Part shown: in pieces, positions 5,619-60,713 of the stretch
Layout: each line of letters starts with the position of its first letter
Numbering within the stretch: the first letter of the stretch is position 1
Sequence record: PQ805429.1
Length of the DNA: 64,000 nucleotides
Reading direction: 5' to 3' (one strand)
Source: Escherichia phage EK5
The notes under the pieces: generated by a model
What the model saw: only the letters and a program-made list of their open reading frames with translations
The model's database searches: none
Told to the model about the DNA's origin: nothing
Made by a program: the position numbers and the translations under genes

Positions 5619-5799
5619 TACTCAAGAGTCAGTAATAGAAGAGATTAAAGCTCAGATAGTTGATAAACTCTCTATCAGAGTTGACTCTAAAGACACCAAA
5701 TGCTCTGGTATACTGAAAATAGAACTCCTCTACAACGGAGAGACTATTTCTTTTGACGAGGTATATGCCTCTGATATTAAATACTTAGCAGAGTTTTAA
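5611..5799 (+). CDS. hypothetical protein (start uncertain, GTG 5611 or ATG 5551)
   Basis: ORF 5551-5799 overlaps upstream gene; in-frame GTG at 5611 follows GGAGGG. Confidence 0.3.
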   Translation: MSNTQESVIEEIKAQIVDKLSIRVDSKDTKCSGILKIELLYNGETISFDEVYASDIKYLAEF

Positions 5800-5808
5800 C
5801 ATCATTCA

Positions 5809-5817
5809 TAATGTATA
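5809..5817 (+). promoter_or_regulatory. TAATGTATA(CT) motif, candidate phage-sigma promoter element
   Basis: Exact TAATGTATACT, 37 nt upstream of ATG 5854; same 11-mer at 12526. Confidence 0.5.
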
Positions 5818-5853
5818 CTCCTTAGTGTACACTGATATATTAAGGAGTTCTAA

Positions 5854-6171
5854 ATGGCAGACCATGTAGGAAAGAGAGATTATGCACAAGAAAGACGTAC
5901 CGCAATTGCCCGTGGTGAAACAGGCGTTGGGAGCAAGAGCGGAGATGCTCAGCGCCACCGTGCACGTCGCATCGTTGAAAAGCGCGATGGAAAAGCTGCT
6001 GTCAGAGGTAAAGATGTTGGACACAAACGAGCTGTCAAGTCTGGAGGCTCTAATGCGTCAAGCAACTTACGTGTTGAATCAGTCAGCTCAAACCGTTCAA
6101 ACGGCGGCAAAAGTGGTGATCGAGCTGGAAAAGCGGCTGGAGCACGCAAAGGAGCTTTAAGCTCATCGTAA
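5854..6171 (+). CDS. small basic Gly/Lys/Arg-rich protein
   Basis: 105 aa; strong RBS TAAGGAG; codon usage (cgt/ggt/gct) matches other likely high-expression genes; flanked by promoter motif and terminator. Confidence 0.5.
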   Translation: MADHVGKRDYAQERRTAIARGETGVGSKSGDAQRHRARRIVEKRDGKAAVRGKDVGHKRAVKSGGSNASSNLRVESVSSNRSNGGKSGDRAGKAAGARKGALSSS

Positions 6172-6175
6172 TATG

Positions 6176-6205
6176 AGGCTACCCAAATGGGTGGCCTTTT
6201 CTTTT
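6176..6205 (+). terminator. rho-independent terminator
   Basis: AGGCTACCC-AAAT-GGGTGGCCT stem-loop followed by TTTTCTTTTAT. Confidence 0.7.
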
Positions 6206-6239
6206 ATATAAACCAAAATAAACTTCTTAGGTAATAAAT

Positions 6240-6494
6240 ATGTCTATTGTAAAAATCGTAAATATTTTTGATGTAACCAGAGATGGCAAGATTGTTAAGT
6301 GGACTTTCACTAACCACCACAACAAATCAAACAAGATCATCGAACGGATGATTGAGATTAACCCAAAAACAGCTCGCACTAATGTAATCCTTCGTGGTGC
6401 TGATGGTAAATTCATTTCTTATAAGAATAAGAACGTAGAAAAATCTTTCCGTGTTGCAGTAGAAAATCTCATCCCATTCCCTAAAGGAGTTTAA
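6240..6494 (+). CDS. hypothetical protein, tandem paralog 1 of 2
   Basis: 84 aa; shares KTART.V.LR...GKFISY......A.E.L.PFP.G with next ORF. Confidence 0.5.
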   Translation: MSIVKIVNIFDVTRDGKIVKWTFTNHHNKSNKIIERMIEINPKTARTNVILRGADGKFISYKNKNVEKSFRVAVENLIPFPKGV

Positions 6495-6495
6495 T

Positions 6496-6780
6496 ATGAA
6501 TAAGTTAGCTATGGTACAGATTCGAGATACATACCCTAACCGCCCGGAGCAGAAACCGCGTACTTGGTCTTATCTGTTGGCTGAAAGTAAGACTATTGAC
6601 AAATACGCTGTAGGGATTGATGCTATTCCAACTAGTATCACATTGCTCCCTCACAAAACAGCCAGAACCCATGTGATGTTACGTGATAGTAAAGGTAAGT
6701 TTATCTCTTATCGTGATTCACGAATCAATAATGAAATTAAATCTGCTATGGAATTTTTGATGCCATTCCCAAGAGGTTGA
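6496..6780 (+). CDS. hypothetical protein, tandem paralog 2 of 2
   Basis: 94 aa; same conserved C-terminal block. Confidence 0.5.
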   Translation: MNKLAMVQIRDTYPNRPEQKPRTWSYLLAESKTIDKYAVGIDAIPTSITLLPHKTARTHVMLRDSKGKFISYRDSRINNEIKSAMEFLMPFPRG

Positions 6781-13361: not shown

Positions 13362-13385
13362 AGCCACCTCCGGGTGGCTTTTTTC
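13362..13385 (+). terminator. rho-independent terminator
   Basis: AGCCACC-TCCG-GGTGGCT followed by TTTTTT. Confidence 0.75.
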
Positions 13386-13397
13386 GTTGGAGACAAC

Positions 13398-13748
13398 ATG
13401 CAAAACACATTAAGTGATAACTTAGGGTTTATCGTTTTCTCAGCTCTTGTATTCTTTGGTGGTATGAAGTTTAACGAATATCAAACAGACAGCAGTAATC
13501 TGGACAAAGAGAAGCACCAGCAAGAGTTAGAGATTGAAAGAAGTAGAGCAGCTGATGAAGTTGCTCAGAGAGTTCTTACCGGTTTATCTAACTGGAAGAA
13601 GAACACGGAAACCGTTTATAAAGAGATGCATTATGAGAAAACTAAACCAGTTTTTTATAATGTCTGCGCTAGTGATGAGTATGTCAGCTTGTTCAACGAG
13701 CGACAACAGCAGGCAATCAATGCCCTTACCAACAAACCTAAAAGCTGA
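13398..13748 (+). CDS. putative i-spanin (Rz-like)
   Basis: N-terminal TM helix LGFIVFSALVFFGG followed by charged coiled-coil region; contains overlapping lipoprotein gene in +1 frame. Confidence 0.5.
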   Translation: MQNTLSDNLGFIVFSALVFFGGMKFNEYQTDSSNLDKEKHQQELEIERSRAADEVAQRVLTGLSNWKKNTETVYKEMHYEKTKPVFYNVCASDEYVSLFNERQQQAINALTNKPKS

Positions 13749-13892
13749 ATGTAGGGTTGACCTACCTCTTTTAGAAAGTGCTCAAGGAAAAGCACTAGCC
13801 ACTACGTTGGAGTGGTATCAGGACCAGTATACAGAATGTGCTGCTAATCACAATGGATTGTTAGAAGCTCTGAAAGAGCGTGGAATAGAATA

Positions 13893-13893
<1 letters not shown>
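13633..13893 (+). CDS. putative o-spanin (Rz1-like lipoprotein)
   Basis: ATG 13633 inside the i-spanin gene; signal peptide MRKLNQFFIMSALVMSMSAC with lipobox-like MSAC; short mature protein. Confidence 0.5.
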
Positions 13894-15389: not shown

Positions 15390-16279
15390 ATGAAGAGGTA
15401 AAAGCTTTAAAGAAAGCTCTTGCAATTAAAATCAAACATTTAAATTTCGTCAGAGATGAGTTGGAGGAGCTATCCAACTTATCAGGATATGAGTTACAGA
15501 ATGAGCTTGTAGAGTTTCAAATCAATATTGATGGCGGTAAATACGTAGAAACAACTAGAGCGATTTTACCTAAAGTTACTGGTAACAAAACTTCTCCAAT
15601 AGACTACTCACATGACCACACGGAGCAATTAGAAATGGAATCTCAAGGCAATCCAGCACTGACCAATATGGTGGGAGATTCCCATTATAAGCCTTTAGTA
15701 GTAATTCTTAATGGGCCTCCGGGTTGTGGTAAAGATACGATAGCCAATGCTTGGGTTAATGCCCATTCATACCATCACAATTATTCAACCAAATCCTTCA
15801 AGGAGCCAATGTACAAGGTAGCTGCTGCTGCACTAGGCATACCTCTAGAAAACTTTCTAGCACGCTATGAAGACCGTGAATGGAAAGAAAAACCTAGACC
15901 AGAATGGGGAGGGAAGTCTGTAAGAGATTTGATGATTTCTACAAGTGAAGACTTCTTAAAACCTATGTTTGGCAACAATCATATGGGGGATCTTGCTGTA
16001 AAAAGCATCAAACAAGAAGGGCTAGGTCAGGATGATATTGTCGTGTTTACTGACGGAGGTTTTGATGCAGAGGTACGAGAACTAGAAAAGAATTTCCATG
16101 TCCAAGTTGTCCAAGTTCTTAGAGATGGTTGCTCTTTTGATGGAGACTCTCGCTCATATATTGAAGGCGAACAGAGAAAAACATATCTACTGTTTAATGA
16201 CTCAACTATTGAATCAGCAGTATCAGATCTAGATTGGATTATTGCACAAGCTCAGGATGATATTTATGGAAGAAGTTAA
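15386..16279 (+). CDS. P-loop nucleotide kinase, dNMP-kinase-like
   Basis: Walker A NGPPGCGKDTIANAW similar to T4 gp1 SGKDTTADF; N-terminal ~100 aa extra coiled-coil region; ATGA overlap with upstream gene. Confidence 0.5.
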
Positions 16280-17084
16280 GCTCCCTGAAGTTGCTATAGT
16301 GGATGCTGACGTTCTTCGATATGAAGTGGGTGCTCTTACTCAGGAGCATCCCTTTCTTGACACAGGACGTGTTCCAGTTGATTACAATTTCATGATTGAA
16401 CGACTTCAGTACAAGATAGATACAATCATTGCTCGCTCAGGTTGCAGCAAGGTTGTGTTCTACTTCAGCGAAGGTGGTAACTTCCGTTTTGATGTTGCTA
16501 AGCAGCAAGACTATAAAGCAAATAGACCTCCCGGAGAGAGACCTTTTCACTGGCAAAATGTTGGTGATTATATTAAAGGTAAATATGAATACATAGATGT
16601 ATTTGGGAGAGAGGCTGATGATGCACTAGCTGAAAGGCAACGTAGGGATAAGAACACTATCATCTGTACTAGAGACAAGGATTTGTTGATAACTCCCGGA
16701 TGGCACTACCGTTGGGCTTGTGGAGAAAGACAGAAAGAAGTTCCTCCTCACTATGTATCTGATTTAGTTTCATGGCAAAACTTCTTCTATCAGATGTTGA
16801 TTGGAGATGGTACAGATAATATCCCCGGATGTGGGGAACGTAAAGAGGTTATGTGGGGTGGTAAACTTCAGCTTCGACGTCAAGGTATAGGGAAGAAGGC
16901 AGCAACTAAATTACTAGCTGATGTTACAGATAAGTGGACCATGTATCATATAGTACGAATGGAATATTATAAGAAGTTCGATACTGAAGATGAAGAGAAG
17001 ATGCTTGAGAATGCTAGGCTGCTCTTTGTTGGTCAGACTCCGGAAGATTTATTTGATTGGACATGGTTGGATAGAGAATGGTAA
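16266..17084 (+). CDS. 5'-3' exonuclease (FEN/Pol I 5'-nuclease family)
   Basis: YKANRPP, GREADDALA and TRDKDLL match Pol I 5'-nuclease motifs YKA.R, EADD, GDKD; start moved to ATG 16266. Confidence 0.7.
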   Translation: MEEVKLPEVAIVDADVLRYEVGALTQEHPFLDTGRVPVDYNFMIERLQYKIDTIIARSGCSKVVFYFSEGGNFRFDVAKQQDYKANRPPGERPFHWQNVGDYIKGKYEYIDVFGREADDALAERQRRDKNTIICTRDKDLLITPGWHYRWACGERQKEVPPHYVSDLVSWQNFFYQMLIGDGTDNIPGCGERKEVMWGGKLQLRRQGIGKKAATKLLADVTDKWTMYHIVRMEYYKKFDTEDEEKMLENARLLFVGQTPEDLFDWTWLDREW

Positions 17085-27750: not shown

Positions 27751-28785
27751 TTATTGTATACTCCTGAATATCTTTCTAGCATCTAATACTGGAATACTCA
27801 ACCCGAGGGCACCACCCCCTCCTAAATCATATTGACTACTCCAAGAGTAAATCATCCTTCCGAAACCTGTACCGAAAGAAGAGCCATTCATCATGTGAGA
27901 TCTTGTGTGTTGAAAATACCAACCACTAGCCTTGCCCCTTATTGCTCCTGCTCCGTAAGATAGTGGTATCATTGGATAGGCCAGAGATGTGTTACCGCCA
28001 CTCATAGGCATAAATCCCTCAACACTAAAAGGGGTTCTATATGTAGAAAATACACACTGAGACCCATTTGGAGAGAAGATATTTAAACCCCCATTGTGGG
28101 TTGGTACTCCAGAACCATCACAGAAGACGGCAATTCTAACACCACCAATGTATCCTGTTTGGTTTGTGTTACCATTATCATGAGATCTGTTCTGGTACAC
28201 ATAAACAACCCTATTGGATGGATTGTATAGCAGCCCTGCTCCACCGTTACTCCAATTCGCGTAGACAGTTGCTCGGCTCATATCAAAACCACCAATATCT
28301 GGTATTTGAAGAGAACCATTTATGTCACCCTCCCAAGCCCAAATACATTGACCAACAACCCCAGAATCGGATATTGAGAAATAGTCAGCAGAGTTGGAGA
28401 ATGTGATTCCATAATTCCTGTTAGCTCTAGGCCATATTTGATACACATTAAAAGCCATATCAAATACCCAACCGTTTACATTATAGTCCATAGTAACTCT
28501 GAAGGTTGAGTTATTAATAACAGATATATCCGTTATCCAATACACATCAGACGTTACGTTAGGAGGTATGTATCTCTCCCAAACAACAGACCCTGTTGGA
28601 ACTACAACTATCTGACCACTACCATCCCAACCACTTATAGGCAAGTCACAGGTATTTCCACTAAAAGAGAAATTCCCACTGACTCTATTTCTGAGTTGAG
28701 GGAATGTGCTACCACTATCGATGTAAATATCAGCAGGTGCCGCTGGACCCGGACCAACCGGGCGTGTCCATATTCCATATGCCAT
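27751..28785 (-). CDS. virion structural protein
   Basis: 344 aa in structural operon, RBS GGGAG. Confidence 0.4.
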   Translation of the reverse strand: MAYGIWTRPVGPGPAAPADIYIDSGSTFPQLRNRVSGNFSFSGNTCDLPISGWDGSGQIVVVPTGSVVWERYIPPNVTSDVYWITDISVINNSTFRVTMDYNVNGWVFDMAFNVYQIWPRANRNYGITFSNSADYFSISDSGVVGQCIWAWEGDINGSLQIPDIGGFDMSRATVYANWSNGGAGLLYNPSNRVVYVYQNRSHDNGNTNQTGYIGGVRIAVFCDGSGVPTHNGGLNIFSPNGSQCVFSTYRTPFSVEGFMPMSGGNTSLAYPMIPLSYGAGAIRGKASGWYFQHTRSHMMNGSSFGTGFGRMIYSWSSQYDLGGGGALGLSIPVLDARKIFRSIQ

Positions 28786-59505: not shown

Positions 59506-59667
59506 ATGTTCAAGTGGCTAAAGCGTGTCTTTCATTGTCATGATTGGAAGATTATTAATACTCGCCCTCTGGTCTATACAGATTCGGATGGGAACAATGA
59601 CAAGGGCACACGTTACGTTATTCAGTGTAAGGTGTGTGGTGATGTTAGTCATCGTGATGTAATCTAA
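59506..59667 (+). CDS. small Cys/His protein, paralog 1 of 3
   Basis: 53 aa; MFKWLKRVFHCHDW...CKVCG. Confidence 0.4.
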   Translation: MFKWLKRVFHCHDWKIINTRPLVYTDSDGNNDKGTRYVIQCKVCGDVSHRDVI

Positions 59668-59676
59668 GGAATCATT

Positions 59677-59841
59677 ATGATCAAATGGTTCAAACGCTTC
59701 TTTCATTTCCATGAGTGGGAAGATCTTCATACTTATGAACTGACGATCACAAATAAACTTACTGACAGAGAGCGACAAGGGTTGCGTATCTACTCTCGCT
59801 GTAAAGTGTGTGGTCTGCACAAGAAAACAGATCTGATCTAA
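59677..59841 (+). CDS. small Cys/His protein, paralog 2 of 3
   Basis: 54 aa; MIKWFKRFFHFHEW...CKVCG. Confidence 0.4.
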   Translation: MIKWFKRFFHFHEWEDLHTYELTITNKLTDRERQGLRIYSRCKVCGLHKKTDLI

Positions 59842-59849
59842 GGGGTGTT

Positions 59850-60059
59850 ATGTTCTTTCGTAAGAAAAAGCCCGAAGATTCTGGATGTAAACATGAGTGG
59901 GTGATCACTGAGAACCTACATATCACCCACGCTAAAGACACTCCGGTCGAGAGAAAAGAATCTCGTGTATCTCGTATCTGTAAACACTGTTTGAAAATAG
60001 AACAGCATAAAGTTCCCGGTCATATCGGTCACGATGTAGCCATTCGTATCTTTAGTTAA
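59850..60059 (+). CDS. small Cys/His protein, paralog 3 of 3
   Basis: Start moved to ATG 59850; CKHEW...CKHC. Confidence 0.4.
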   Translation: MFFRKKKPEDSGCKHEWVITENLHITHAKDTPVERKESRVSRICKHCLKIEQHKVPGHIGHDVAIRIFS

Positions 60060-60068
60060 ACAAATCTA

Positions 60069-60144
60069 GCACCCTTAGCTCAATGGACAGAGCAGCGACC
60101 TTCTAAGTCGTTGGTTACAGGTTCGAGTCCTGTAGGGTGCACCA
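60069..60144 (+). tRNA. tRNA-Arg (anticodon UCU)
   Basis: 7-bp acceptor stem GCACCCT/AGGGTGC, D-arm GCTC/GAGC, anticodon loop CTTCTAA, T-arm ACAGG-TTCGAGT-CCTGT, discriminator A and encoded CCA. Confidence 0.9.
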
Positions 60145-60163
60145 ATCAACGTAGGAGGTAGTT

Positions 60164-60463
60164 ATGAGTTGGGGTGGTGTAATATCCTTAATCTGTATCT
60201 TCCTTGTCTGTGTGGCCCTTACAGGCTGCGTACAGAGCCGTCCTGATGGATGGTGTGCAGTAGCAGTGGATGGTATTTGTGTATCTCGCTGGCATAAAGG
60301 TGAGAAGGTTCCTTCTGGTGAGATTGATATGCGCTGGAACGGAGCAACCTGCTCTAATGCTAACCCTTCTATCAACGAAGAGAAGTCTACGCCAGACAGT
60401 GTTGTGATTGATACAGCGTTGTGGTGTGGTGGCTCTACAGTTACCACTGGTAAGGAGTGGTAA
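60164..60463 (+). CDS. Cys-rich lipoprotein
   Basis: Signal peptide with lipobox LTGC; strong RBS AGGAGG; four additional Cys in mature part. Confidence 0.55.
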   Translation: MSWGGVISLICIFLVCVALTGCVQSRPDGWCAVAVDGICVSRWHKGEKVPSGEIDMRWNGATCSNANPSINEEKSTPDSVVIDTALWCGGSTVTTGKEW

Positions 60464-60464
60464 C

Positions 60465-60713
60465 ATGACAGCTCATTATTGGAATACAAAGAAGCTCCTT
60501 GAAGAGATGGCTGGAGTTAGTAGAGTACAGCTAATCTCTATGCTTCGAATGGATGCTCGCTCCTTACGCTTCCAAGTAAAGATTGGTAACTTCAGTGATG
60601 GCCTTTATTACACGCTGAAGGAAAGGATTAAGAAGACACACTTCATTATATATGGACTCAAACCGAGAACATATGTTAACTACATGTATTGGGATACATG
60701 CTACGATAATTGA
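60465..60713 (+). CDS. hypothetical protein
   Basis: Start moved to ATG 60465 after AAGGAG. Confidence 0.4.
   Translation: MTAHYWNTKKLLEEMAGVSRVQLISMLRMDARSLRFQVKIGNFSDGLYYTLKERIKKTHFIIYGLKPRTYVNYMYWDTCYDN

Follow-up and report, generated by a model that had tools for sequence, protein, structure and literature searches.

The closest described relatives of the protein discussed here are Rtp45 (UniProt Q333D9), the exclusion lipoprotein of siphophage Rtp, and its counterparts bas18_0026 of phage Oekolampad and bas02_0025 of phage JeanPiccard, all of Pfam family PF24052. In a cryo-EM structure of Rtp45 bound to Shigella LptDE and LptM (PDB 9RPS), the lipoprotein sits on closed LptDE at the periplasmic membrane interface, between LptE and LptM (Dunbar et al., PNAS 2025, PMC12685063). 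Residues 30-35 of Rtp45, which carries a Cys30-Cys38 disulfide, pair with LptD residues 318-323, and its long, partly beta-stranded hairpin enters the barrel lumen. Extracellular loop 4 (EL4) of LptD is thereby shifted by up to 20 Å and binding of the receptor-binding protein (RBP) is lost (PMC12685063). According to the authors of the structure, AF3 predictions of such complexes with Rtp45-type lipoproteins are wrong (PMC12685063). Llp of phage T5 and Cor of phages T1, phi80 and N15 follow the same strategy: each is a small early lipoprotein that acts on an outer-membrane receptor protein from its periplasmic side, so that the RBP no longer binds (PMC9586334, PMC12685063). The target of Llp is FhuA, on which it acts by long-range allostery, whereas Rtp45 physically displaces a loop (PMC12685063). 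LptD-dependent siphophages are common on E. coli, and for JeanPiccard the dependence on LptD was shown by means of resistance mutations.

Here we describe a member of the same family in Escherichia phage EK5 (PQ805429.1), of which a stretch of 64,000 nucleotides, referred to below as the window, was analysed. The Rtp45/PF24052 family as such is already known; new here are the enlarged hairpin tip, which is probably stapled by a disulfide, the podovirus setting and the uncoupling of the lipoprotein from the RBP.

The lipoprotein gene and its setting

The phage is a Kuravirus, a phiEco32-like podovirus with a prolate head in the subfamily Gordonclarkvirinae. With 3 kb of sequence surrounding the gene as query, 108 phage records match at 80-96% identity, NJ01, KBNP1711, 172-1, MN05 and SkaterBoy (Bas90) among them. 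Mapping of coordinates onto SkaterBoy indicates that the window includes all virion genes and that what it lacks is just ~13 kb with replication genes. The virion genes of SkaterBoy are oriented rightward; all its other genes run leftward from the right end. The lipoprotein gene, which is Bas90_0100 in SkaterBoy and phi32_106 in phiEco32 (annotated there as 'putative phage lipoprotein'), sits in the distal part of this leftward cluster amid tiny genes of unknown function. Since the leftward cluster forms the early class of phiEco32, with sigma-70 promoters (PMC8948821), the lipoprotein gene is probably transcribed early. A promoter scan did not find a sigma-70 promoter specific to the gene and gave fewer hits than in shuffled sequence. 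The ten neighbouring ORFs had zero Pfam matches and matched PHROGs of unknown function only. Three small ORFs lie in tandem just upstream of the tRNA gene (59506-59664, 59677-59838 and 59850-60056, + strand); an 'H.HEW/HDW' at the N-terminus and a CxxC pattern at the C-terminus mark them as zinc-ribbon-like paralogues, two of the three matching the same phrog_8294.

The coordinates of the lipoprotein gene and of the other features that bear on its interpretation are collected in Table 1. Its ATG is the most upstream start possible in the frame and is preceded by TAGGAGGT. The original prediction had placed a lipoprotein gene with a strong ribosome-binding site immediately downstream of a tRNA, and both parts of this hold: the Shine-Dalgarno sequence lies 5 nt upstream of the ATG, and the tRNA, predicted by ARAGORN 19 nt upstream of the gene, is the only one in the window. 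The order of tRNA-Arg and lipoprotein gene is the same in SkaterBoy and phiEco32. The Arg codons of the lipoprotein gene are CGT and CGC, so its translation is independent of tRNA-Arg(TCT) and the tRNA is context only. Pairwise dN/dS values among Kuravirus orthologues are 0.04-0.26, with differences mostly at synonymous sites, and the gene is thus under purifying selection. Together, the reading frame, its signals and the low dN/dS show that this is a real gene that is kept by selection.

Table 1. Features of the lipoprotein locus and of the spanin pair (positions in the window; residue numbers are those of the precursor).
Feature	Position	Strand	Remarks
i-spanin, N-terminal TMD	13374-13748	+	overlapped two-component architecture
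o-spanin, starts MRKLNQFFIMSALVMSMSAC, non-canonical lipobox M-S-A-C	~13633-13893	+, other frame	missed by the strict lipobox scan
tRNA-Arg (anticodon TCT)	60069..60144	+	ARAGORN; ends 19 nt before the lipoprotein gene
Shine-Dalgarno AGGAGG	60153..60158	+	5 nt before the lipoprotein ATG; read from the sequence
Rtp45-family prolipoprotein CDS	60164..60463	+	99 codons + TAA (60461-60463); orthologue of phi32_106 / Bas90_0100
Predicted type II signal peptide, aa 1-21, and lipobox L19-T20-G21-C22	60164..60229	+	G21 and C22 invariant; AF2 helix 3-20
Conserved core RPDGWC...G.C.xxW, aa 26-44	60239..60295	+	small predicted beta-hairpin closed by Cys31-Cys39; AF2 strands 31-35 and 38-44
Ascending strand of predicted long beta-hairpin, aa 47-63	60302..60352	+	conserved G52, E53, D55, R57 and G60
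Cys63-to-Cys88 loop	60350..60427	+	24 residues between the Cys; predicted hairpin tip
Descending strand and C-terminal motif GS..TG-KEW	60428..60460	+	family-wide; G90 and W99 invariant
AAGGAG in the Lys97-Glu98 codons	60452..60457	+	Shine-Dalgarno sequence for the next gene, ATG 60465

The ATG of the next gene starts 1 nt past the lipoprotein stop codon, and its Shine-Dalgarno sequence lies inside lipoprotein codons, which implies translational coupling. In the window (60452-60467) the KEW codons AAG GAG TGG supply the AAGGAG. Both phiEco32 and JeanPiccard show the same arrangement; in the latter, it is the RBP gene that follows. Conservation of the KEW motif could therefore partly reflect the RNA level.

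The product reads MSWGGVISLICIFLVCVALTGC followed by VQSRPDGWCAVAVDGICVSRWHKGEKVPSGEIDMRWNGATCSNANPSINEEKSTPDSVVIDTALWCGGSTVTTGKEW. A stretch of 14 uncharged hydrophobic residues precedes the lipobox LTGC, which is followed by VQS, and the mature protein is predicted to begin with a lipidated Cys22. Residue +2 is Val, so the Asp signal for retention in the inner membrane is lacking and sorting to the outer membrane is predicted. Both strands of the window together offer 1,406 combinations of ORF and start codon with 40 aa or more; a scan of all of them, strict enough to miss a lipobox such as MSAC, found a lipobox after an uncharged h-region in this ORF only. The n-region MSWGG (60164-60178) has no Lys or Arg throughout the Kuravirus clade, and the siphophage homologues in the alignment carry Lys. 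In addition, two h-region cysteines (C11 and C16) are conserved across the Kuravirus clade and absent from these siphophage homologues. With such an uncharged n-region and h-region cysteines, the efficiency or timing of export might differ from that of the siphophage homologues. The mature part contains exactly four further cysteines, C31, C39, C63 and C88. A textbook LTGC lipobox, four more cysteines and a disulfide-bonded lipoprotein had been proposed from the DNA; the lipobox and the cysteine count proved correct, with G21 and C22 invariant in an alignment of 39 family members, and the idea of a lipoprotein with paired cysteines is strengthened by the conservation of the pairs.

Family membership, fold and hairpin tip

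By each criterion of sequence and predicted fold that we examined, the window protein is a full-length homologue of Rtp45. Its match to PF24052 ('Phage lipoprotein family') spans all 80 positions of the profile, with an E-value of 2.7e-34 and 117.4 bits (cut-off 27), and its match to phrog_4281 has an E-value of 2e-33; it matched no other Pfam family, and NCBIfam and PADLOC gave zero matches. Chain D of 9RPS, which is Rtp45, is the sole meaningful match in the PDB (phmmer E 9e-14), and a profile built from the family alignment picks out Rtp45 alone, over the whole of residues 1-76 (E 1e-40). Designed armadillo-repeat proteins that also came up with phmmer were rejected as spurious, as they had zero significant stretches and were scored through summed weak repeats over residues 64-98. 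T5 Llp, of which structures are published, was not matched in the PDB at E-values up to 10, either by sequence or by profile. The AF2 model has moderate confidence (pLDDT 72) and consists of a helix (3-20) and two hairpins (31-35/38-44 and 52-65/86-98), with a low-confidence loop at 71-76. Foldseek places 9rps_D first among PDB entries, with a probability of 1.00 and a TM score of 0.73 over all 53 modelled residues of the target; the alignment has 75 columns against these 53 residues.

The 39 sequences of the family alignment are the window protein and relatives from three homologue searches. A word-indexed search gave nine relatives, and the rest were reached through the Klebsiella and JeanPiccard homologues. 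Invariant positions are G21, C22, G29, W30, C31, C39, G46, G52, D55, R57, G60, G90 and W99, and near-invariant ones are R26, P27, D28, A32, G37, W43, V49, E53, S91, G96, K97 and E98. The invariant C31 and C39 align with the disulfide-forming C30 and C38 of Rtp45, and residues 31-36 align with the LptD-pairing residues 30-35. The near-invariant polar residues R26, D28, E53, K97 and E98 are common to the members from LptD-dependent phages. That a protein of ~8 kDa has kept so many charged residues speaks for a conserved partner. With Rtp45 the window protein shares the position of the lipobox, the RPDGWC...G.C hairpin, the G-E-x-D-x-R strand and the C-terminal G(S)KEW; identity is ~51% over a 37-residue core, as counted by hand from the alignment. 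Both are small phage proteins with an outer-membrane sorting signal, expressed early in the case of Rtp45 and probably also here. The family is very small: when 1.84 billion representative proteins were searched exhaustively with the profile, only 19 matched, 15 of them with E <1e-7, and there are thus no distant cellular relatives that could inform function. Every member whose context was examined is on a phage or phage-like contig.

Several features set the window protein apart from Rtp45. Its signal-peptide n-region is uncharged, its gene lies behind a tRNA in a podovirus early region and not beside the gene of a J-like tail tip protein, and an Rtp44-type RBP was not found in the parts of the genome that were examined. 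The largest difference within the protein is at the tip of the long hairpin. Where Rtp45 has a four-residue tip (K61-G-S-S64) and siphophage members in general a Gly-rich tip of 4-10 residues, the window protein has the cysteine-bracketed loop C63-SNANPSINEEKSTPDSVVIDTALW-C88. The length of this loop from Cys to Cys is 8, 18, 24 or 33 residues among relatives. Its start motif, C-S/L-N-G/A-x-x-V/I-D/N-E, is kept among the variants and the rest varies in sequence and length. In the register of the AF2 model, C63 and C88 are cross-strand partners (63+88 = 65+86), and they most probably form a second disulfide that staples the base of the inserted loop.

The virion proteins of this phage are 95-100% identical to those of phiEco32 (capsid 100%, short tail fibre 99.6%, nozzle 99.1%, needle 99.4%), and the lipoprotein is merely 74% identical because the insert differs. 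In this comparison with phiEco32, no co-variation was found between the type of insert and the tail-tip proteins; the insert is a fast-changing element that is independent of the tail tip. A cysteine-bracketed tip loop also occurs in a 94-aa family member at 6001-6285 of a 50-kb Logan contig (SRR28250349), which has genes for NAMPT, PRPP synthetase, TerB/TerC, ProQ and KilA-N as neighbours. This contig matches known phages in short stretches only, at least some of which are tRNA genes, and it may represent a second group that carries the lipoprotein apart from the RBP.

Distribution relative to the LptD-type receptor-binding protein

In 15 E. coli siphophage loci, that of JeanPiccard among them, the lipoprotein gene abuts a gene for an RBP of the Rtp44/Oekolampad type, with the stop codon of one meeting the start codon of the next. 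The situation in Kuraviruses is different. With the JeanPiccard RBP as tblastn query, the best match for an LptD-type RBP in the window had an E-value of 0.48, and at E-values up to 1 there was none in SkaterBoy (1-50 kb), phiEco32 (1-32 kb) or ECBP2 (1-32 kb). Of the records in the phage collection, 386 have the lipoprotein and 342 the RBP; for Escherichia phages the counts are 271 versus 196, and this excess of the lipoprotein approximates the number of Kuraviruses. Judged from these sequence searches, Kuraviruses are the one large group in which a putative exclusion lipoprotein is present and the matching RBP absent.

At least 86 phage records have a homologue at 60% identity or more, and a further group is found at 56-58%; for comparison, 99 records from E. 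coli and Shigella have a Kuravirus-type capsid. The lipoprotein gene is nearly universal in the Gordonclarkvirinae (Kuraviruses) of E. coli, where it is syntenic. Among the lipoprotein matches listed, none came from the distant relatives that infect Salmonella, Proteus, Cronobacter or Aeromonas.

Klebsiella Weberviruses, in which no RBP gene lies within 6 kb of the lipoprotein gene, were considered as another group of orphan carriers and rejected, as an Rtp44-like RBP sits elsewhere in the Webervirus Domnhall (NC_049835.1). There, gp22 (5703-6656), which carries the annotation 'membrane protein' and directly follows the J-like gp21, is homologous to the LptD-type RBP over its full length (34% identity, E 3e-39). 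The lipoprotein of Domnhall is gp31 (16258-16485), which lies 10 kb away and is annotated 'PDDEXK-like family protein' but belongs to the Rtp45 family. Its C-terminus and that of the window protein are nearly identical (TTTGKEW versus VTTGKEW), and the Webervirus members have no cysteine-bracketed insert. The matches of gp22 and gp31 suggest that LptD serves Klebsiella Weberviruses as terminal receptor and that the annotation of gp31 is wrong. The LptD-type RBP and the lipoprotein are also adjacent in seven records named 'Campylobacter phage', for example MG065671.1 (A120, 47.5 kb). The host labels of these records look doubtful and they may be coliphage-like contaminants.

Proposed function and alternatives

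We propose, with a probability of about 0.58, that the window protein is an Rtp45-family superinfection-exclusion lipoprotein that closes the infected cell to LptD-dependent phages. Its lipidation, disulfides, LptDE binding and exclusion activity are inferred from Rtp45, and its timing from the early class of phiEco32. The gene would be transcribed early, probably on a polycistronic message, and the 99-aa precursor would be exported by Sec, lipidated at Cys22 and cleaved by signal peptidase II. Oxidation would then give two disulfides, Cys31-Cys39 and probably Cys63-Cys88, and with Val at position +2 the Lol system would be expected to sort the protein to the inner leaflet of the outer membrane. 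Going by its homology with Rtp45, it would dock on the periplasmic side of the LptD barrel beside LptE and LptM and push the long beta-hairpin with its enlarged tip up the barrel lumen. The extracellular loops would be displaced, and RBPs that require native LptD would lose binding. The infected cell, and later its debris, would thus be barred to LptD-dependent phages, above all to the common small siphophages that are competitors on the same host. Two features of the protein itself count against this proposal: the 24-residue insert is located in the part that enters the lumen and might alter or abolish binding to LptDE, and the n-region of the signal peptide has no basic residue.

It had originally been suggested that phage lipoproteins of this type often block the receptor of their own phage. 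The receptor-blocking part of this suggestion gains from the placement of the protein in the same sequence and predicted fold family as Rtp45, which blocks LptD from the periplasm. The 'own receptor' part does not fit what is established for Kuraviruses, for which O-antigen and other surface glycans only are known as receptors, and without an LptD-type RBP the logic of blocking one's own receptor does not apply directly. This lack and the variation of the insert, which does not follow that of the tail tip, favour exclusion of competing LptD-dependent siphophages. Still, a virulent phage with a factor aimed at competitors alone would be unusual, and the BASEL-2 paper considers it unlikely that virulent O-antigen-dependent phages carry receptor-disabling factors. 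An alternative that we regard as unlikely is that LptDE takes part in a late step by which Kuraviruses themselves adsorb or enter, with the short tail fibres, needle or nozzle as candidates for binding it, and that the lipoprotein blocks their own terminal receptor. As for Llp in T5 and Rtp45 in Rtp, infected cells would be protected and progeny would be spared adsorption to debris. The pairing of the lipoprotein with an LptD-type RBP in the siphophage genomes examined (adjacent at the 15 loci, 10 kb apart in Domnhall) and the near-universality, synteny and purifying selection in the E. coli Gordonclarkvirinae are all in line with self-exclusion. Moreover, as lptD is essential, knockout screens would be blind to it, and frequent loss of O-antigen could mask rarer lptD resistance mutations. 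If so, LptDE would be a hidden terminal receptor or entry portal of Gordonclarkvirinae, reached via a tail protein unrelated to the siphophage RBPs, and the lipoprotein would be its genomic footprint, with the enlarged, disulfide-stapled tip adapted to another footprint on LptD; to this, too, we give rather little credence. Apart from the failure to find an LptD-type RBP homologue in the window or the three relatives, self-exclusion is at odds with an insert that is wholly different from that of phiEco32 though the short tail fibre, nozzle and needle are 99% identical. In addition, cryo-ET of phage SU10 shows several virions ejecting into one cell, and the literature favours LPS core or glycans as receptor.

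It is also conceivable, but improbable, that only the scaffold was kept and that the cysteine-bracketed insert redirects the protein to another outer-membrane protein or function, not LptD. The insert is at the predicted functional tip, it differs in length (8-33 residues) as well as in sequence between close relatives, and the genome context is uncoupled from the LptD-type RBP. On the other hand, about 25 core positions, many of them charged, are invariant or nearly so between Kuravirus members and those of LptD-dependent phages, which is hard to explain without a shared partner, and the variants have in common the C-S-N-G-x-x-V-D-E with which the insert begins. A role in host takeover seems less probable still: the protein would plug the LPS translocon, thereby stopping insertion of new LPS and O-antigen or weakening the outer membrane before lysis, and exclusion of phages would be a mere side effect. 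Such a role would suit a gene in the early host-takeover cluster, and with the hairpin of Rtp45 sitting in the lumen of LptD, a bulkier tip could stand in the way of LPS. However, Rtp45 is not known to impair LPS export, old LPS vastly outnumbers the LPS newly made per lytic cycle (an argument made for O-antigen modification, PMC11990801), and the phage has its own set of holin, endolysin and spanins. Nothing specific supports either retargeting or inhibition of LPS export. That the protein is an o-spanin, the outer-membrane subunit of the lysis machinery, is effectively refuted. Although it is a small outer-membrane lipoprotein with periplasmic cysteines, an overlapping i-/o-spanin pair is already present at 13374..13893 and its SkaterBoy orthologue is annotated as Rz-like spanin. 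The lipoprotein gene is 46 kb away from this pair, in the early cluster and without an adjacent i-spanin, and its product has only 4 Pro in 77 mature residues and matches a different family (PF24052).

Most records label the lipoprotein merely as 'hypothetical protein' or 'putative lipoprotein', and none of the papers in the searchable literature ties the lipoprotein gene of Kuraviruses to LptD or exclusion. As an essential and conserved protein that is exposed on the cell surface, LptD is an attractive target for phage steering and for antibiotics. If binding to LptDE is true and serves the exclusion of competitors, coliphages that are candidates for therapy (Kuraviruses and relatives) would shut out LptD-dependent phages, and this bears on the design of cocktails. 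If binding is true and the phages use LptD themselves, these podoviruses would need LptD and their terminal receptor would be identified. The variable, disulfide-bracketed tip loops could in addition form a natural series of probes of the LptD lumen and guide the design of peptide inhibitors.

Lastly, the window contains another variable gene, at 27751-28785 on the - strand between the genes for the tail needle and the transglycosylase ejection protein. It encodes a 344-aa 'membrane protein' that is a hypervariable component of the virion or of the ejection apparatus and shows no co-variation with the type of lipoprotein. The protein is 61-62% identical to its SkaterBoy and phiEco32 counterparts, and the flanking virion genes are 96-100% identical.
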